NCBI GenBank assembly: GCA_963702005.1
Contig: OY969696.1
Location: 1,216,001 to 1,280,000 of the forward strand
Length of the DNA stretch: 64,000 bases
Source: Candidatus Aminicenantes bacterium
Lineage (GTDB): Bacteria; Acidobacteriota; Aminicenantia; Aminicenantales; JAFGBC01
Direction of reading: 5' to 3'
Shown here in pieces: positions 2,793 through 9,137 of the stretch (position 1 is the first letter of the stretch; each line of letters begins with the position of its first letter). Made by a program: the position numbers and the translations under genes. The notes beneath the pieces were generated by a model. The model searched no databases. It was not told where the DNA came from and worked only from the letters and a program-made list of their open reading frames with translations.

Positions 2793-5024
2793 TTGAGCGT
2801 CGCTTGCCCGAATTGCCGCGCCGAGAACGATCCCGGCTCCAGGTTCTGCCGGATGTGCGCGGCCTCGCTCGAGCCGGGAGGGGGCGTTCCCGCGGCCACC
2901 CAGTCCATTCACCCCCCGGCCCATGATCCCGCCCGGGGAACGCTGTTCGCCGGAAAATACGTCGTCGTCAAAGAGCTGGGGCGAGGCGGGATGGGGATCG
3001 TCTACGAGGCCGAGCAGCAGAATCCCAAGCGGGCGGTCGCCCTCAAGGTCATCCGGGGCGGGACCCTCGTCACCGAGACGACGGTCAAGATGTTCCAACG
3101 CGAGGCCCAGACGCTGGCCCGGCTCAAGCATCCCAACATCGCGGCCATCTATGAATCCGGCCGGACCAAGGACGGCCGCCATTATTTCGCGATGGAGCTC
3201 GTCCGCGGCGAGATCCTGACCGGATACCTGACTCGCCGGGGCGAATCCGGTAAGCTCTCGCCCGACGAGGTCCGCTTCCGGCTCCGGCTCTTCCGCAAGA
3301 TCTGCGACGCCGTGAACTACGCCCATCAGCGCAGTATCATCCACCGCGACCTCAAACCCTCCAACATCATCGTTCTTTCCTTGCCGGGCCCGGCCGGCGC
3401 CGGCCCCGGAGACGTTCCCGAGATCAAGGTCCTCGATTTCGGACTGGCCCGGATGACGGACACCGACCTGGCCGCGAGCGCCATGGTGACTGAGGCGGGC
3501 CAGGTGTTCGGAACGTTCCCCTACATGAGCCCCGAGCAGGTCCGCGGGAACCCGGACGAGATTGACGTCCGCTCCGACGTCTATTCGCTCGGCGTTGTCC
3601 TCTATGAAATGCTGACCGGCGTCCTGCCCTACGACCTGACCCGGGCGTCGCTGCCGACCATGGCCCGGACGATCGTCGAGGAGCCGCCCCGGTCGCTCGC
3701 CAAGAGCTGGCGGGGCGCCCGGAAACCGGACGACGACATCCAGACCATCGTCGCCAAGGCCCTCGAAAAGGAGCCGGCGCGCCGCTACCAGAGCGCGGGC
3801 GCCCTATCCGAGGACGTGGAACGCTATCTCCAAAAGCAGCCGATCTTGGCCCGACCGCCGAGCGGACTCTACCAGCTTCAGAAGCTCGTCTCGCGTCACA
3901 AGATCGGATTCGGGTTTGCGATTGCCTTCCTTGTCCTCCTGGCGGGTTTCGCCCTGACCATGACGGTCCTCGAGGCCAGGATCGCGAGGGAGCGGACCCG
4001 GGCTGAGAAGGAAGCCGCCAAAGCCAAAGCAATCAACGAATTTCTCCTGGAGACGATGGGCTCGGCCAACCCGGTTGAAGGCGCCGGCCGCGACACGACC
4101 GTCCTGGAGGCGCTCAAGACTGCGGCCGAGAAGATCGCGCCGGCCTTCCCCGGACAGCCCAAGGTCGAGGCCGACCTGAGGCACAGCATTGGCATGACTT
4201 ACCTGAGGCTGGGACGCTACCGAGAGGCGGAGGATCTCCTCCAATCCGCCTGCCGGATCCTGGAAGAGAAGTTCGGTCCCGAATTCCCGGACCTCGCCTC
4301 CCCGCTGACGACGCTCGGCGTCCTGAAGCACGAACGGGGCGAATATGCGGAGGCCGAGTCCCTGTACCGGAGGGCGCTGGCCATCGCGCGCCGAACCCGC
4401 AAAGACGAGGACCCGAACGTCCTGAGTATTCTCAACAACCTGGCCCTTGTCCTCCAGGACCAAGGCAAGCTTGACGAGGCGGAGCCTCTCGTCCGGCGGA
4501 TCCTGGAGATAGACCGTAAGCTCCTGGGCTCCGAGGACGTCAATGTCGGCGTGGACCTCAACAACCTGGGAAACCTTCTCCTCAAAAAAGGAGACTTCAA
4601 GGAAGCCGAACCGTTTCTGCGCGAGGGCGCGGGCGTTCTCGATAAAAAAGGACATCCCTGGCGGTCCTTCGCCCAAGGCAATCTGGCCGATCTCCTCAGC
4701 CGGAAGGGCGAGAACGAGGCGGCCGAAGCGATATTCGCCAAGGCCCTTCCGGCCGCCCTCAAGGACTTCGGCGAAGACAACCAGGACCTCGCGAAGTTCC
4801 GGACGAAATACGGCGCCTGCTTGATCAACCTCGGCCGGCACGGCGAGGCGGAAAAGCAATTGCTGGCCGCGCTCCCCGTCTTCGAGACGAGCCTGGGCGG
4901 CAAGGACGAATGGACCCAGCGGACGATCCGGGAACTCGTCCGCCTCTATAAGGCCTGGGGCAAGGATGGGGAAGCGCTTAAGTATAAGAACCTCTTGGAG
5001 CCGGCCTCAGGGCCGCCGAAATAA
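2793..5024 (+). CDS. Ser/Thr protein kinase (Hanks type) with zinc ribbon, TM helix and C-terminal TPRs
   Basis: CPNC..FCRMC, LGRGGMGIVY, VALK, HRDLKPSN, DFG, YMSPEQ, DVYSLG; TM near aa 372-395; TPR repeats. Confidence 0.92.
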   Translation: MSVACPNCRAENDPGSRFCRMCAASLEPGGGVPAATQSIHPPAHDPARGTLFAGKYVVVKELGRGGMGIVYEAEQQNPKRAVALKVIRGGTLVTETTVKMFQREAQTLARLKHPNIAAIYESGRTKDGRHYFAMELVRGEILTGYLTRRGESGKLSPDEVRFRLRLFRKICDAVNYAHQRSIIHRDLKPSNIIVLSLPGPAGAGPGDVPEIKVLDFGLARMTDTDLAASAMVTEAGQVFGTFPYMSPEQVRGNPDEIDVRSDVYSLGVVLYEMLTGVLPYDLTRASLPTMARTIVEEPPRSLAKSWRGARKPDDDIQTIVAKALEKEPARRYQSAGALSEDVERYLQKQPILARPPSGLYQLQKLVSRHKIGFGFAIAFLVLLAGFALTMTVLEARIARERTRAEKEAAKAKAINEFLLETMGSANPVEGAGRDTTVLEALKTAAEKIAPAFPGQPKVEADLRHSIGMTYLRLGRYREAEDLLQSACRILEEKFGPEFPDLASPLTTLGVLKHERGEYAEAESLYRRALAIARRTRKDEDPNVLSILNNLALVLQDQGKLDEAEPLVRRILEIDRKLLGSEDVNVGVDLNNLGNLLLKKGDFKEAEPFLREGAGVLDKKGHPWRSFAQGNLADLLSRKGENEAAEAIFAKALPAALKDFGEDNQDLAKFRTKYGACLINLGRHGEAEKQLLAALPVFETSLGGKDEWTQRTIRELVRLYKAWGKDGEALKYKNLLEPASGPPK

Positions 5025-5051
5025 ATCAACTTCAATCAGCCGGGAGCATCG

Positions 5052-7016
5052 GTGGTACGAGGTCAAACGGTTTCAAAATCGAGAGCGGGGCGGCTCCTGA
5101 TCATCGTCCTGGGCGTGATAGTCCTCGGCCCGGTTGCCGAGCGAATGATCGGCGCAGCTTCCCTCTGGACGCCGTCCGGTCCATACGGCGGCGACGTCCG
5201 GGGCCTGGCCGCCGGCCGCGACGGACGGGAGTTTTTTGCGATCACGGCAGGAATTCCCGGGCAGGTCTACCGGTCCTCAAGCCCCGCGGCCCCTTGGCGC
5301 CGCGCGGCCTACCTTCCCGAGGCGCTCTATGACATCGGCTGCGATCCGCTTCATCCGGCCGTCGTCTTCGTCCTCGGAACGACGGCCCTGTTCCGGTCCC
5401 GGGATCTGGGTTCGACCTGGATGCGATGCCCCCTGCCGGCCGGATGTTCGGCCGAGCAGGGCCGGCTCGCCGTCCATCCCGATAATCCCAAGGTTCTCTG
5501 GGCGGCCGGGCGGATGAAGAGAAACGACGGTAAGGAGTCCTTTATCGTCCTGAGATCGGCGGACACGGGCGGGACCTGGACGGCCGCGATTCTTCCGGCG
5601 TTCCTTACCGGACAGAAAACCTGCTGCCTGGCCGTCAGCCCGTCCGACCCGAATCTCCTTTTCGCCGGCGGCGATTTGGACGGTGTGGATCGCGAAAGCC
5701 GCCTGTTCCGGAGCGGGGACGGAGGCCGCCACTGGACCGACGTCACCGGACCGATCGCTTCTCCGCCCCTGGCCCTCGCCGTTCATCCTCTCGATTCCTA
5801 CCGGGCCTATATCGCGACGGCCAAAGGCATTTACCTGAGCCGTGACCAAGGGCGTAGCTGGCGTCAGGCCGGGGGGAAAGCCTTCGGGACCGCGCTGGCC
5901 ATGGATCCGGCCCGGCCGCGGACCATCCGCGCGGGCGCCGACAGGCGTGTCTTCACGAGCCTGGACGGCGGAGAGCGCTGGACGGAATGTTCCGCCGGCC
6001 TGTTCGGGACCTGCCGCCGGATCGTCCTTGCGGCGGACCGGATTTTCTTCGCCTCCTCGGCGGGTATCTTCCGCAGCGATGACGGCGGGGCGAGCTGGGA
6101 CGAGCGAAACAGCGGGTTGGCGGCGGCTCAAGTCATTTCGCTCGGGATGTCTCCTTCCCGGCCCCTTATCCTCTACGCCGGGATCAGGGGGAACGGTCTT
6201 TTCAAGACCGCCGACGGCGCCGCCTCTTGGGAACGGCTGCCGGGATTTTATCGCGCGGAGATCGTGATCCGGATTGTCGTCGACCCCGCGGATGCCGCCC
6301 GGCTCTTCGTCCTGACCGGAGGCTGAGGGCCGGACGACATCTACAGGTCTGTGGATGGAGGCCGTAGCTGGGACAAATTGTTTCACGGAAATATGGAGGA
6401 TCTGGTCTTGAATCCGGGCCGGCCCGGCCATCTTCTGGCCGCCGGCCAAATCCAGGAAAAAATAGTATTGGTCCCGGTCGTGTTCCAGTCCAAGGACGGC
6501 GGCGCGACCTGGTCCTGGCATCGGCTTTCGACCGAAGCCGGCGTCGCCAGCGCGGTGGCCTGCGATCCTTCGAACGACCGGATCCTGTTTGCGGGCGGCC
6601 TGGCGGGAGAAAAAACGGTCTTGGTCAGGTCCGGCGACGGCGGGGAGACCTGGACGGACATCACGGGCGGGGTGACCGGCCGAGTCCTTTTCTTGCGCGC
6701 GGACGAGAGGACGGCGGGGCGGATCTGGGCCGGCACGGATTCGGGATTATTCCGCAGCGATAATGCGGGCTCGACCTGGACCCGGCTGTCCTCGTTCGCG
6801 GCGAGATGCGTCCTGGTTGATCCCGCGAACTCGCGGCGCTTGTTCGCGGCGGGAGCGGCCGGCGTTTGGACGAGCCGCGACGGGGGAACGACCTGGCAGC
6901 GGATGAACGGGGGACTCTCGGTCCGGGACGTGAATTGCCTCGGCCGCGAAGTCCGTTCGGACACTCTCTACGCGGGAACGGAGGGCGGCGGCCTCTGCAA
7001 GCGTATTCACAATTAA
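5052..7016 (+). CDS. Secreted BNR/Asp-box beta-propeller protein (VPS10/Ycf48-like), probable selenoprotein with Sec at codon 425 (TGA 6324-6326)
   Basis: ORFs 5052-6326 and 6351-7016 are in the same frame; read-through gives ..LFVLTGG-U-GPDDIYRSVDGGRSW.., completing an SxDGGxxW repeat; SECIS-like hairpin follows the TGA. Confidence 0.8.
6328..6363 (+). promoter_or_regulatory. Putative bacterial SECIS element
   Basis: Upper stem CATCTACA-GGTC-TGTGGATG (6338-6357), lower GGCC/GGCC stem; CAGGTCTG begins after 17 nt following the TGA (16 nt in E. coli fdhF). Confidence 0.75.
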
Positions 7017-7060: not shown

Positions 7061-7402
7061 ATGCAAATCGACTTCTATGCCTTCGGACGGATTGTCATCG
7101 AGGGCCGTGAGTTTACGACGGACGTCATCATCTTCCCCAAGCGGGTCGACTCCGCCTGGCGGCGGAAGGAAGGGCACCGTCTGTCCGTCGAAGATGTGCG
7201 GGGGGTCATCGAGGCCGACGCGGAAACGGTCGTCATCGGCACCGGCGCGGTCGGCGAGATGGCCGTCCCCCCCGATGTCATCGCTCATCTCGAAGCCCGG
7301 CGAATCCGGGTCATCGTCCTCCGAACCAAGGAGGCCGTCGAAACCTACAACCGGATTCTCGGCTCGGGCCGCGTCGTGGCCGCCCTCCATCTGACCTGTT
7401 GA
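7061..7402 (+). CDS. Mth938-like (DUF498) protein
   Basis: FGRIVIEG..DVIIFP, VVIGTG, T.EAVETYN, C-terminal AALHLTC. Confidence 0.85.
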   Translation: MQIDFYAFGRIVIEGREFTTDVIIFPKRVDSAWRRKEGHRLSVEDVRGVIEADAETVVIGTGAVGEMAVPPDVIAHLEARRIRVIVLRTKEAVETYNRILGSGRVVAALHLTC

Positions 7403-7421
7403 CGGGGGGCGCCCCGTCTTT
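7401..7421 (+). terminator. Probable intrinsic terminator between convergent genes
   Basis: GACGGGG-ggcg-CCCCGTC hairpin followed by T run. Confidence 0.5.
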
Positions 7422-8170
7422 CAGCCTTTGCTTCCCCCGGACTCCGGCGCCCGCGCCATAAGCTTCCGCTCGACCTGGGAGCAGAGACCGAAGATCATGT
7501 TGTATTCCCAATTCGTCAAGCCGGCCCGGCCGGTGACCTGCCTTATGTTGCGGAGAATCTCGGCCTCCAGGTCCCGGTCGCCTCGGGCGGCGTACTCGAG
7601 AAGCCGGATCGTTGATTGGATCTTGCGAAAGAGCAGCCGGAGTTCCGCCTGCGTCACGAACCTCGGATTTTCGCCCGGGGCGGGGAGCCGGCTCAGCTCG
7701 TAGGCCGCGAGGAGGACGCTCTGGGCCAGGTTCAGGGAAGGGGCGGCGGCGTCGGTCGGAATCGTCAGCAGAAACGCGCAGGAGGCGAGCTCGCGGTTCG
7801 TCAATCCGTTGTGCTCGTTTCCGAACAGGATGGCGACTTTATTCCCCGGGGCCGCCCGGACGATCCGCTCCGCCCCGTCCTTGAGGGGAAGGAAGAGGCC
7901 TCGACGGCGGCCGCGCCGCCGCGTCATCCCCACCACGAGGCTCGCGCCGGCGATCGCCTCTTCGAACGTGGCATGGACCGGGGCTCGTTCCAGAATGTCC
8001 TTGGCGCCGCAGGCCATGGCCTTGGCCATGGGGGAGTGGGGATCGGCCGGCTTGACGAGTTCGAGGCGCCGGAAACCCATGTTTTTGAGAGCCCGGGCGG
8101 CGGCCCCGATGTTCCCCGACTCGGTCGGCTCGACCAGGACGAAGGCGATGCGGTCTTTCCAGCCGCTCAT
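7421..8170 (-). CDS. trmJ: SPOUT tRNA 2'-O-methyltransferase, TrmJ/LasT family
   Basis: VLVEPTESGNIGAAARALKNMG, ILFGNEHNGLTNREL, SLNLAQSV. Confidence 0.88.
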   Translation of the reverse strand: MSGWKDRIAFVLVEPTESGNIGAAARALKNMGFRRLELVKPADPHSPMAKAMACGAKDILERAPVHATFEEAIAGASLVVGMTRRRGRRRGLFLPLKDGAERIVRAAPGNKVAILFGNEHNGLTNRELASCAFLLTIPTDAAAPSLNLAQSVLLAAYELSRLPAPGENPRFVTQAELRLLFRKIQSTIRLLEYAARGDRDLEAEILRNIRQVTGRAGLTNWEYNMIFGLCSQVERKLMARAPESGGSKG

Positions 8171-8191: not shown

Positions 8192-9061
8192 CTATCCGAA
8201 CACGATACCGGCGTAGCCGACGAAGCTGGCGTTCGGAGACACGTCGAAGCTCGTGTAATAATCCAGGACCTCCCCCCGAGTCGCGCCCAGAAGCTTGGCG
8301 AGATGGACGGCCGTCGAGGCCGCGCCCATGCAGCAAGCGTTGTGATGGCGGAGGGCTTCCTCGCGGACTCCGGTCGCGTCCAGGGCCGTCATGAAGTCGA
8401 CGGCCTTTTTATCGTTGACGTCCTTGACCCAGCGCACGGCGTCCGGGCCGAGGCCCTTGGGAGCCATCCCGTAGTTGGGGCCGTAATGGGTCAGGTCTGT
8501 CGACCCGATGACGATGAGATTGCGGCCTAGAGCCCGGGCCGCTTTGATAATCGCTTCGGCGATCGCGAACGAGACATCCTCGGGCGGGGCTCCGATCCCG
8601 ACGACCTTGGCGCCGGGGAGGTAGTGTTTGATGAAGGGCATTTGGAGCTCGATCGTGTTGTCGTGGTCGTGGTCCTCCGGCGTCTCTTCGATGAAGCGGA
8701 ATGCGGCGAGGAGGGGAGCGGCCAGCTCGGCGTCCACGGGGAGGTTGCCCAGCGGCGTCTCCCACTCGCCCGCGGCCATGATATTCGGCTTCATGCCCGG
8801 CCCCAGATGGCCGCCGAAGAGGACGACGGTGTCCGGACGGGATCGCTCGGAGAGAGCCTGAATGACGTTTGCGGCCAGGCGGCCCGAATAGCTCCAGCCG
8901 GCGTGGGGGACGATGCCTCCGACGAGGTCGTCCCGAAGGATTCGAGGCCGGGCCGAGGACGCCTCGAACGCCTTGATCGCCCTCAGAATCCCGGTCTTGT
9001 CTCCGGGATACCACGACCCCGCGAAATCCGGCCTTCTGGCTTTGCTCGTCTTGACTTTCAT
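8192..9061 (-). CDS. amrB: AmmeMemoRadiSam system protein B (MEMO1 family)
   Basis: AGSWYP, IVPHAGWSYSG, WETPLG, ELQMPF, STDLTHYG, SFVGYAGIVF. Confidence 0.88.
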   Translation of the reverse strand: MKVKTSKARRPDFAGSWYPGDKTGILRAIKAFEASSARPRILRDDLVGGIVPHAGWSYSGRLAANVIQALSERSRPDTVVLFGGHLGPGMKPNIMAAGEWETPLGNLPVDAELAAPLLAAFRFIEETPEDHDHDNTIELQMPFIKHYLPGAKVVGIGAPPEDVSFAIAEAIIKAARALGRNLIVIGSTDLTHYGPNYGMAPKGLGPDAVRWVKDVNDKKAVDFMTALDATGVREEALRHHNACCMGAASTAVHLAKLLGATRGEVLDYYTSFDVSPNASFVGYAGIVFG

Positions 9062-9137
9062 GTGAACAGCCCCTCCGTATCCGTCTTCATTGTAGGTACC
9101 GGCCCGAGCCTCGTCAACCTCATTCCCCGCGGACAAT

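Follow-up and report, generated by a model that had tools for sequence, protein, structure and literature searches.

A probable selenocysteine-containing double beta-propeller in Candidatus Aminicenantes, encoded across an in-frame UGA and a conserved coding-region hairpin

Does the TGA at positions 6324–6326 end a gene, or does it specify an amino acid within one? The question is raised by two open reading frames (ORFs) in a 64,000-nucleotide stretch of Candidatus Aminicenantes DNA (contig OY969696.1, positions 1,216,001 to 1,280,000; this whole stretch is the window, and it lies on a single 4.31-Mb contig, C1). The upstream ORF, 5052–6326, encodes 424 amino acids (aa) from a GTG start, and the downstream one, 6351–7016, encodes 221 aa, likewise from a GTG; the ORF list places both in a common frame, and direct reading of the sequence identifies TGA 6324–6326 as the sole stop separating them. 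A first-pass annotation of this DNA had proposed a single gene with selenocysteine (Sec) at the TGA. The answer favored here, with a probability of about 0.86, is that 5052–7016 is one gene, that its UGA at 6324–6326 is decoded as Sec, and that its product is an exported double propeller. In the proposed mechanism, the organism's SelB and tRNA-Sec would decode the UGA under the guidance of a coding-region selenocysteine insertion sequence (SECIS) at 6338–6357. The product would be an exported protein of 654 aa with two seven-bladed BNR/Asp-box propellers, similar in fold to glycoside hydrolase family 74 (GH74), and with Sec425 in a loop of blade 9. Leading to this reading are a conserved unit of UGA and hairpin, the presence of the Sec machinery, a full-length propeller under purifying selection on either side of the UGA, and what is known of SelB-dependent decoding. 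The features on which the argument draws are these:

5052–7016, plus strand: putative single gene of 654 codons plus a TAA stop, encoding a tandem BNR/Asp-box beta-propeller selenoprotein, probably exported (reading frame, Pfam, AlphaFold 2 model, GH74 fold matches)
5042–5046, plus strand: Shine-Dalgarno-like GGGAG, 5 nt upstream of GTG 5052 (direct reading)
5052–5165, plus strand: N-terminal region, residues 1–38, with the hydrophobic core LLIIVLGVIVLG; probable signal peptide or membrane anchor
6324–6326, plus strand: in-frame UGA, predicted selenocysteine 425 in the motif T-G-G-U-G (alignment column common to the paralogues)
6338–6357, plus strand: putative upper stem-loop of a bacterial SECIS, CAUCUACA-GGUC-UGUGGAUG, 8 bp including one G.U, with a 4-nt loop
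6328–6363, plus strand: lower GGCC/GGCC stem around the upper hairpin, 6328–6331 with 6360–6363 (RNA folding)
6342–6371, plus strand: Asp-box of blade 9, Y-R-S-V-D-G-G-R-S-W, the codons of which build the hairpin (direct reading, codon counts)

Translation of the TGA as U yields 654 residues, including the segment LFVLTGGUGPDDIYRSVDGGRSW. GTG 6351, the start of the downstream ORF, is then the codon for V434 within the Asp-box S433-x-D435-G-G-x-x-W440, and it is located within the 3' arm of the hairpin (6338–6357). Inspection by eye of the 13 bases 5' of GTG 6351 found no GGAGG-like run. Three statements of the first-pass annotation are borne out by these observations: the two ORFs share a frame interrupted only by this TGA, read-through completes an Asp-box that GTG 6351 would cut, and the second ORF has no ribosome-binding site of its own. 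The two ORFs are almost certainly one gene.

A conventional reading would treat the TGA as a true stop, with the halves made separately or the first made alone, and with the hairpin serving as a terminator or a coupling element. Standard gene callers do split the gene in this way, and a protein record (P0006) exists for the 424-aa N-terminal piece. Against this, a separate second protein would have to begin inside an Asp-box and a hairpin and without a ribosome-binding site, no U run follows the hairpin on its 3' side, and the joined chain is folded by AlphaFold 2 (AF2) as one tandem propeller. Moreover, about 6860 database proteins, among 8000 scored, match residues 330–654 at E ≤ 1e-10, and most of them are unsplit chains of about 650 aa, named 'photosystem II stability/assembly factor-like' or 'WD40/YVTN/BNR-like'. 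The recurrence of the TGA in independent retrievals, given below, also speaks against a true stop.

RNA folding of 6318–6385 produces CAUCUACA-GGUC-UGUGGAUG at 6338–6357 together with the lower GGCC/GGCC stem, at −25.1 kcal/mol (z = −2.4), reproducing the structure that the first-pass annotation had drawn. The lower stem is not kept among the paralogues described below and is probably incidental. The bare 20-nt hairpin has a predicted free energy of −7.9 kcal/mol, and its loop lies 19 nt from the UGA. The bacterial SECIS (bSECIS) model, as quoted in a 2026 review (PMC13188914), has a loop of 3–9 nt, a stem of 4–16 bp, a G in the first two loop positions, a UGA-to-loop spacing of 16–37 nt, and a minimum free energy (MFE) of −7.5 kcal/mol or lower. 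The target falls within every limit quoted there, for loop, stem, first-loop G, spacing, and MFE.

The same hairpin resembles the element in Escherichia coli fdhF. In fdhF of E. coli K-12 the TGA is followed after 16 nt by CAGGTCTG, and in the target the same octamer follows after 17 nt, a spacing that had been claimed earlier and that is confirmed on the fdhF sequence. The two share an in-frame UGA, a hairpin within the coding region, the apex CAGGUCUG, and a GGUC loop closed by CA/UG; selA, selB, selC, and selD, which the fdhF system needs, are all present in this genome. They differ in the upper stem, which in the target is a perfect 8 bp with no bulged U, whereas fdhF GGTTGCAGGTCTGCACC leaves one T unpaired (by inspection); the bulged U in the fdhF upper stem is important for SelB binding. 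The products differ as well: that of fdhF is a molybdopterin enzyme, and the target protein is an unrelated propeller.

A six-frame search of the genome with the joined protein recovered about 20 full-length paralogues, 30–38% identical to the target and many of them carrying one TGA. A single TGA stands at one alignment column in 14 of the 21 paralogue rows, in the motif G-U, 5–7 residues before Y-R-S-V-D-G-G; the target gene is one of the 14 Sec-containing paralogues. Six rows have no split and show S, P, S, E, D, or C in or close to the Sec column, and one is broken by TAG/TAA. Downstream of all 14 TGAs, at a distance of 19 or 22 nt, lies (G/A)UCUACA-GGUC-UGUAGA(C/U) or a close variant. The proteins are thus only about one-third identical while the nucleotides of the hairpin are nearly invariant. 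The Arg-Ser of the Asp-box following the TGA is encoded by AGG-TCT in all 12 boxes counted, as opposed to 1 of 32 other boxes of the same genes, where CGG or CGC (Arg) and AGC or TCC (Ser) are usual; the count takes boxes matching [YF]RSx[DN][GA] and excludes the broken paralogue 1976698 and two YSSVDGG Sec sites. Frozen synonymous codons and a near-invariant hairpin amid such protein divergence point to selection on the RNA, and on this comparative evidence the hairpin is under RNA-level selection.

Pairing within the stem supports the same conclusion. Across 22 aligned sites, of which this genome supplies 14 and other genomes 8, 98.9% of stem cells pair, compared with 14–54% when the 3' partner is slid. 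Two stem pairs covary (G-C in 17 sites and A-U in 5; A-U in 21 and U-A in 1), and the observed covariation score was reached by none of 500 shuffles, a figure that is not a probability because the rows are related. In the U-A variant, Tyr changes to Phe and Val to Glu together.

Two of the paralogues may be pseudogenes or frameshifted: C1:1976698–1978576 is interrupted by a TAG and a TAA near the Sec-loop region, and C1:756150–758184, beside the sel operon, is found as two pieces in separate ORFs. Two other Sec-propeller paralogues, C1:772368–774833 and C1:780279–782771, carry C-terminal extensions of about 170–200 aa past the GGG(L/V) end of the propeller, with GW(S/T)G-type repeat and FN3-like sequence; one of these paralogues, fully read, is 821 aa long.

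The association of the hairpin with an in-frame TGA extends beyond this genome. The retrieval probe was a 20-mer drawn from the hairpin alone, leaving out the TGA. Among 185,579 species genomes it found 10 loci, 8 of which have an in-frame TGA in G-U context; these eight lie in metagenome-assembled genomes (MAGs) labelled Candidatus Aminicenantes and in one Candidatus Zixiibacteriota MAG, and the remaining two are an unrelated protein and a BNR protein with no TGA. In metagenome contigs there were 77 matches on 71 contigs, and 75 of the 77 have an in-frame TGA at most 12 codons upstream, preceded by Gly in every one of the 75 and spaced from the hairpin by 19 nt (50 cases), 22 nt (22 cases), or 25 nt (3 cases). 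Over all sources, 82 distinct sites have a TGA-hairpin spacing that is a multiple of three and lie at least 150 nt from a contig end, and all 82 are open for 50 aa on either side. An in-frame TGA at three fixed distances in 75 of 77 independent retrievals is difficult to reconcile with a true stop, which we consider very unlikely.

The 16-mer core of the hairpin is present in 10 copies in its own genome and in none of 400 evenly sampled other genomes of the phylum, which suggests that the Sec form is confined to few lineages. Wetland and sediment metagenomes also contain many contigs with members of the family. The exact 20-mer, encoding (I/V)YRSVDGG, was found by pattern scan with no upstream TGA in two BNR proteins, one in a Roseivirgaceae MAG and one on a metagenome contig; its presence there may reflect chance codon identity or former Sec forms. 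The two sites are:

L065:7718–7737, minus strand: BNR protein with the 20-mer and no TGA
L135:2518–2537, plus strand: BNR protein with the 20-mer and no TGA

A conserved 18-nt inverted repeat could also be a DNA element, for example a recombinase site that shuffles C-terminal halves among paralogues. The repeat has a 4-nt spacer, the exact 16-mer occurs 10 times in the genome and always at the junction of the two halves, and the paralogues are frequently in tandem. Such an element, however, would leave the obligatory in-frame TGA 19–25 nt upstream unexplained. The G.U pair in the target stem is compatible with RNA pairing only, as it is tolerated in an RNA but not in a DNA duplex, and so argues for pairing at the RNA level. 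No joint at the repeat was seen in contigs, with the exception of one paralogue that cross-maps, and the two halves of the paralogues diverge together, at 30–38% identity over the whole length. A role as a DNA element is therefore considered extremely improbable, and decoding of the UGA as Sec remains the favored explanation of the repeat.

Decoding as Sec presupposes a Sec machinery, and the genome encodes a complete one. Profile searches identified selA (561.7 bits), selD (364.6), selB (255–288), and tRNA-Sec (73.8), all above their cut-offs and side by side in the order selA-selD-selB-tRNA-Sec at C1:765451–770102, so that the search for selA, selB, selC, and selD proposed in the first-pass annotation returns the full set as an adjacent operon. 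Four Sec-propeller genes lie directly 5' of the operon (C1:756150–764679) and two just 3' of it (C1:772368–774833 and C1:780279–782771). A DsbD_N-domain protein precedes selA, and between two of the Sec-propeller genes are encoded three exported AhpC-TSA/Redoxin proteins with WCxPC motifs, a Fer4_5 polyferredoxin, and an outer-membrane barrel. The cluster C1:756150–782771 also encodes an FAD amine oxidase and a PIN protein, and the SelD frame (C1:766858–768063), which has no internal stop, begins with a Cys-rich extension (HCICNPKDPCPCDLFKRKNVCLCAG). Ordinary genes of this genome, several of the paralogues among them, also end in TGA, and the code is hence not reassigned.

A Sec-type FdhA is missing from the genome (best match 59 bits against a cut-off of 814), and an internal TGA is absent from FdhA, SelD, AhpC-TSA, FlpD, and Rdx, the five common selenoprotein families checked, which implies that the Sec machinery needs other clients. 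A homology-free selenoprotein screen of the genome was lax, giving 111 candidates that are mostly chance-like and thus no census of the selenoproteome; only the propellers and two further genes were carried forward from it. The latter encode exported Thioredoxin_7-TPR proteins of 569 and 507 aa in which a TGA stands in place of the redox motif's first Cys, giving U-G-S-C:

L141:150–1859, plus strand: Thioredoxin_7-TPR protein with U-G-S-C
L142:170–1693, minus strand: Thioredoxin_7-TPR protein with U-G-S-C

In both genes a hairpin with an apex containing GGUC lies downstream of the TGA. Both proteins score under the cut-off of every NCBIfam selenoprotein model matched; on their motif and hairpins they are probably further selenoproteins. 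Sec is the textbook reading of UGA in thioredoxin-fold genes of the U-G-S-C kind, and these two therefore serve as an internal positive control for this type of SECIS.

The control bears on another alternative, in which the UGA is recoded without selenium, by near-cognate insertion of Trp, Cys, or Gly, and the hairpin simply stimulates read-through. Distant homologues have Gly or Ser at the loop, and the hairpin does not have the bulged U of the E. coli element. The complete sel operon flanked by Sec-propeller genes, the match of the apical CAGGUCUG core to the fdhF element, the GGUC apex after the UGA of both U-G-S-C genes, and the need of the machinery for clients all argue in the other direction and make insertion of a different amino acid quite unlikely compared with Sec.

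Pfam assigns Sortilin-Vps10 (1.6e-31), PSII_BNR, and BNR to the joined chain. The NCBIfam model NF045728 (F510_1955 family glycosylhydrolase) scores 194.1 bits against a cut-off of 175, a score summed over six stretches of a 246-position profile and thus a match to the repeat rather than to the full-length architecture; the same search of the joined protein matched no selenoprotein model. The AF2 model, built from 19 paralogues, has a predicted local distance difference test score (pLDDT) of 88.7 and a predicted template modeling score (pTM) of 0.86. The top 20 Foldseek matches are GH74 chains (E from 1e-28 to 1e-24, template modeling (TM) scores of 0.62–0.67, 16–20% identity), in agreement with a profile search of PDB sequences (E = 1.8e-40). 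The Asp-box count, 13 boxes plus a closing blade, gives 14 blades. On the model, the fold is a GH74-like tandem seven-bladed propeller.

At the N-terminus, residues 14–26 (LLIIVLGVIVLG) form a hydrophobic run behind K/R residues; residues 1–35 are disordered in the AF2 model (pLDDT <50). Paralogue N-termini, by inspection, read MKK followed by hydrophobic residues, as is typical of signal peptides. The target N-terminus is probably a signal peptide or membrane anchor. The 654-aa exported Sec propeller of the first-pass annotation is therefore upheld as to its 654-codon frame, its propeller fold, and its unit of UGA and SECIS, with export predicted from the N-terminal sequence.

Sec425 would lie between strands 2 and 3 of blade 9, and the face of a propeller formed by the strand 2–3 loops is the usual site of ligand binding or of active sites. 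The GH74 xyloglucanases (PDB 2cn2, 5fkt, 6mgl, and 1sqj) share the tandem seven-bladed Asp-box architecture, and their catalytic Asp lies in a strand 2–3 loop (YARTDIGGAYRW), by inspection the same loop class as that of the Sec; HMMER alignments of the target to the PDB chains are shifted by whole blades, so that the correspondence does not fix the residue register. The photosystem II assembly factor Ycf48/HCF136 is a single seven-bladed propeller, and the target, with two, scores 56.8 bits against an NCBIfam equivalog cut-off of 326. We know of no GH74 enzyme that contains Sec. GH74 hydrolases have a pair of catalytic Asp residues, one to each propeller; among the 19 paralogues, the only invariant acidic residues are those of the Asp-box and DP motifs. 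In 73 of the 82 sites a Cys lies 18–34 residues upstream of the Sec, at −23 in 48 and at −29 in 25.

Comparison with the wider protein family qualifies the picture. Unsplit BNR-like homologues from Acidobacteriota and elsewhere share the length and architecture of the target, but their Gly/Ser loop at the site is shorter, and TGA and hairpin are both absent. The one paralogue with Cys at the Sec column (GQCG) groups as sister to two Sec forms (support 100). In a quick maximum-likelihood tree, a clade with a Shimodaira–Hasegawa-like approximate likelihood ratio test (SH-aLRT) value of 94 comprises all 13 Sec forms used and 6 non-Sec forms, the Cys paralogue among them. At least three changes of Sec state are forced on this tree, and some unsplit homologues fall inside the Sec-holding clade. 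As one hairpin is common to the Sec forms, a single gain followed by several losses would be the simpler history. The first-pass annotation had asked whether TGA or Cys is conserved at this column with compensatory changes in the hairpin. The part concerning TGA stands, with TGA and hairpin kept in 14 paralogues and two covarying pairs; on the part concerning Cys the picture is mixed, with Cys rare but seen in one paralogue, and with the shorter Gly/Ser loop and no hairpin in most distant unsplit homologues. The residue in homologues is thus a partial exception among the refuting observations that the first-pass annotation had named, the others having come out in favor of Sec.

A family of this kind appears to be missing from the latest catalogue. 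Table 1 of the 2026 review lists 119 prokaryotic selenoprotein families, mostly thioredoxin-like or with UxxC/CxxU motifs (PMC13188914). The table contains no BNR/Asp-box, propeller, or GH74-like family, and the text of the review does not mention propeller, glycosyl, sialidase, Ycf48, sortilin, or Aminicenantes. Similarly, the text of the deep-Sep paper (PMC12013277) does not mention propeller, glycosyl, sialidase, Ycf48, sortilin, or repeat. A search of open-access full text and bioRxiv found no relevant BNR/beta-propeller or Aminicenantes selenoprotein. Catalogued selenoproteins and the propeller family are alike in a single UGA-encoded Sec, a coding-region bSECIS, and a partner Cys in most members; the propellers differ in that the Cys is 23 or 29 residues away and in the 14 copies in one genome. 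Together, the comparisons suggest that the Sec propellers are a new selenoprotein family of the UGA/SECIS kind, with a prior mention elsewhere being possible.

Strain variation offers an independent view of the target gene. Contigs from four wetland-metagenome runs (three studies) cover 6324–6357; one contig extends over the entire gene and differs at 42 positions. The 40 listed differences all lie outside the TGA and the hairpin, those at 6212 and 6365 coming closest, and the contigs of the four runs agree in this with the TGA, for which read mapping had been suggested. In the frame of the gene 28 of the 40 listed differences are synonymous, as compared with 7 and 8 of 40 in the other two frames, and 4 of the 5 that lie 3' of the TGA are synonymous. 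This bias on both sides of the UGA suggests purifying selection on the full-length propeller.

Several observations weigh against decoding of this UGA as Sec. The target is among the 9 of 82 sites with no upstream Cys, and in its stem a G.U pair takes the position of the U-A pair seen in 21 of 22 sites. Six of 200 shuffles fold as well as the sequence does, which places the hairpin of a single sequence only modestly beyond chance and makes the comparative evidence decisive; within that evidence, the paralogues are related and counts across them are not independent events. An Rfam scan of 6200–6500 (E ≤ 10) matched no SECIS family, its sole match being a chance microRNA. Among the 19 paralogues (alignment A1, which excludes the partial paralogue 756159 and the broken 1976698), the only conserved columns specific to Sec forms are G424, U425, and V434; V434 belongs to the hairpin, and no catalytic constellation is visible. 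Exchange of Sec and Cys among homologues is sparse: in the MAFFT column of 120 homologues plus the query, 104 entries are gaps and 2 are Cys, one of them being the query itself, whose U was entered as C. At the site, FVLA-TSGLQYVLRSADGG is the sequence of the closest unsplit homologue (P0002, 34% identical). As to strain variants, 52 further differences exist beyond the 40 listed, among which a TGA change in a minor contig is possible, and a contig from run X5 (depth ~5) lacks 1 nt at 6187, a deletion that would shift the frame upstream of the TGA and was not seen in the other three runs. No RNA run is among the sequencing runs listed for the target.

Some of these points would equally fit a real family in which the target copy is decaying or non-functional: the missing Cys, the G.U pair, and the deletion. 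No close orthologue of the target was found in 40 relatives, the best match outside its own genome being 38% identical and to another paralogue. (A hit in relative G016 with two TGAs was not counted; its TGAs are off the Sec column and the region looks frame-shifted.) Decay, though, would not be expected to leave a frame open over 654 codons behind a Shine-Dalgarno-like run, strain differences that are mostly synonymous (28 of all 40 listed, and 4 of the 5 beyond the TGA), a G.U pair that preserves the 8-bp stem at −7.9 kcal/mol, or a confident AF2 model (pLDDT 88.7). A decaying target copy is considered unlikely, and the Sec-containing propeller remains the preferred reading of the locus.

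What such a Sec would do is less certain. The first-pass annotation had suggested metal binding, redox sensing, or an Se-S bridge. In most members the selenol could pair with the Cys that lies 23 or 29 residues upstream to give a redox-active selenylsulfide, and exported TlpA-like thioredoxins, whose genes lie next to the sel operon, would recycle it. The target has no upstream Cys and would act as a lone selenol. Alternatively, the Sec may bind a soft metal or a chalcogen substrate. Each of these roles is a tentative proposal, at well short of even odds, and nothing here discriminates between them. More doubtful still is a broader scheme in which the lineage keeps its Sec machinery mainly for an exported set, namely the 14 propellers and the two U-G-S-C thioredoxin-TPR proteins, as an extracytoplasmic selenium-based system. 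Surface selenols, usually paired with Cys, would then cooperate with the polyferredoxin and the TlpA-like reductases whose genes surround the sel operon, in redox chemistry or in the capture of sulfur, selenium, or metal substrates.

To our knowledge, the bacterial selenoproteins described so far are, with few exceptions, thioredoxin-like or metal-cofactor oxidoreductases in which Sec occupies a short redox motif. The family proposed here would add a selenoprotein of wholly different fold, an exported GH74-like double propeller. If the broader scheme is correct, Sec would also have a task beyond the familiar cytoplasmic oxidoreductases, in a fold with no known link to selenium. It is unusual in its fold, its export, its 14 copies in a 4.3-Mb genome, and its placement around the sel operon. 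Standard gene calling splits these genes, which makes the family invisible in protein databases. The identity of the hairpin apex with that of E. coli fdhF means that read-through is directly testable in E. coli. More generally, the family raises the question of the task of a lone surface selenol outside the cytoplasm of an anaerobic sediment bacterium.

The annotations of the neighboring genes in the window make no functional tie to the propeller evident. Upstream of the target lies a zinc-ribbon Ser/Thr kinase with TPR repeats (2793–5024), and downstream follow a DUF498 protein (7061–7402), a SpoU-type methylase (7421–8170), and a Memo-like protein (8192–9136).

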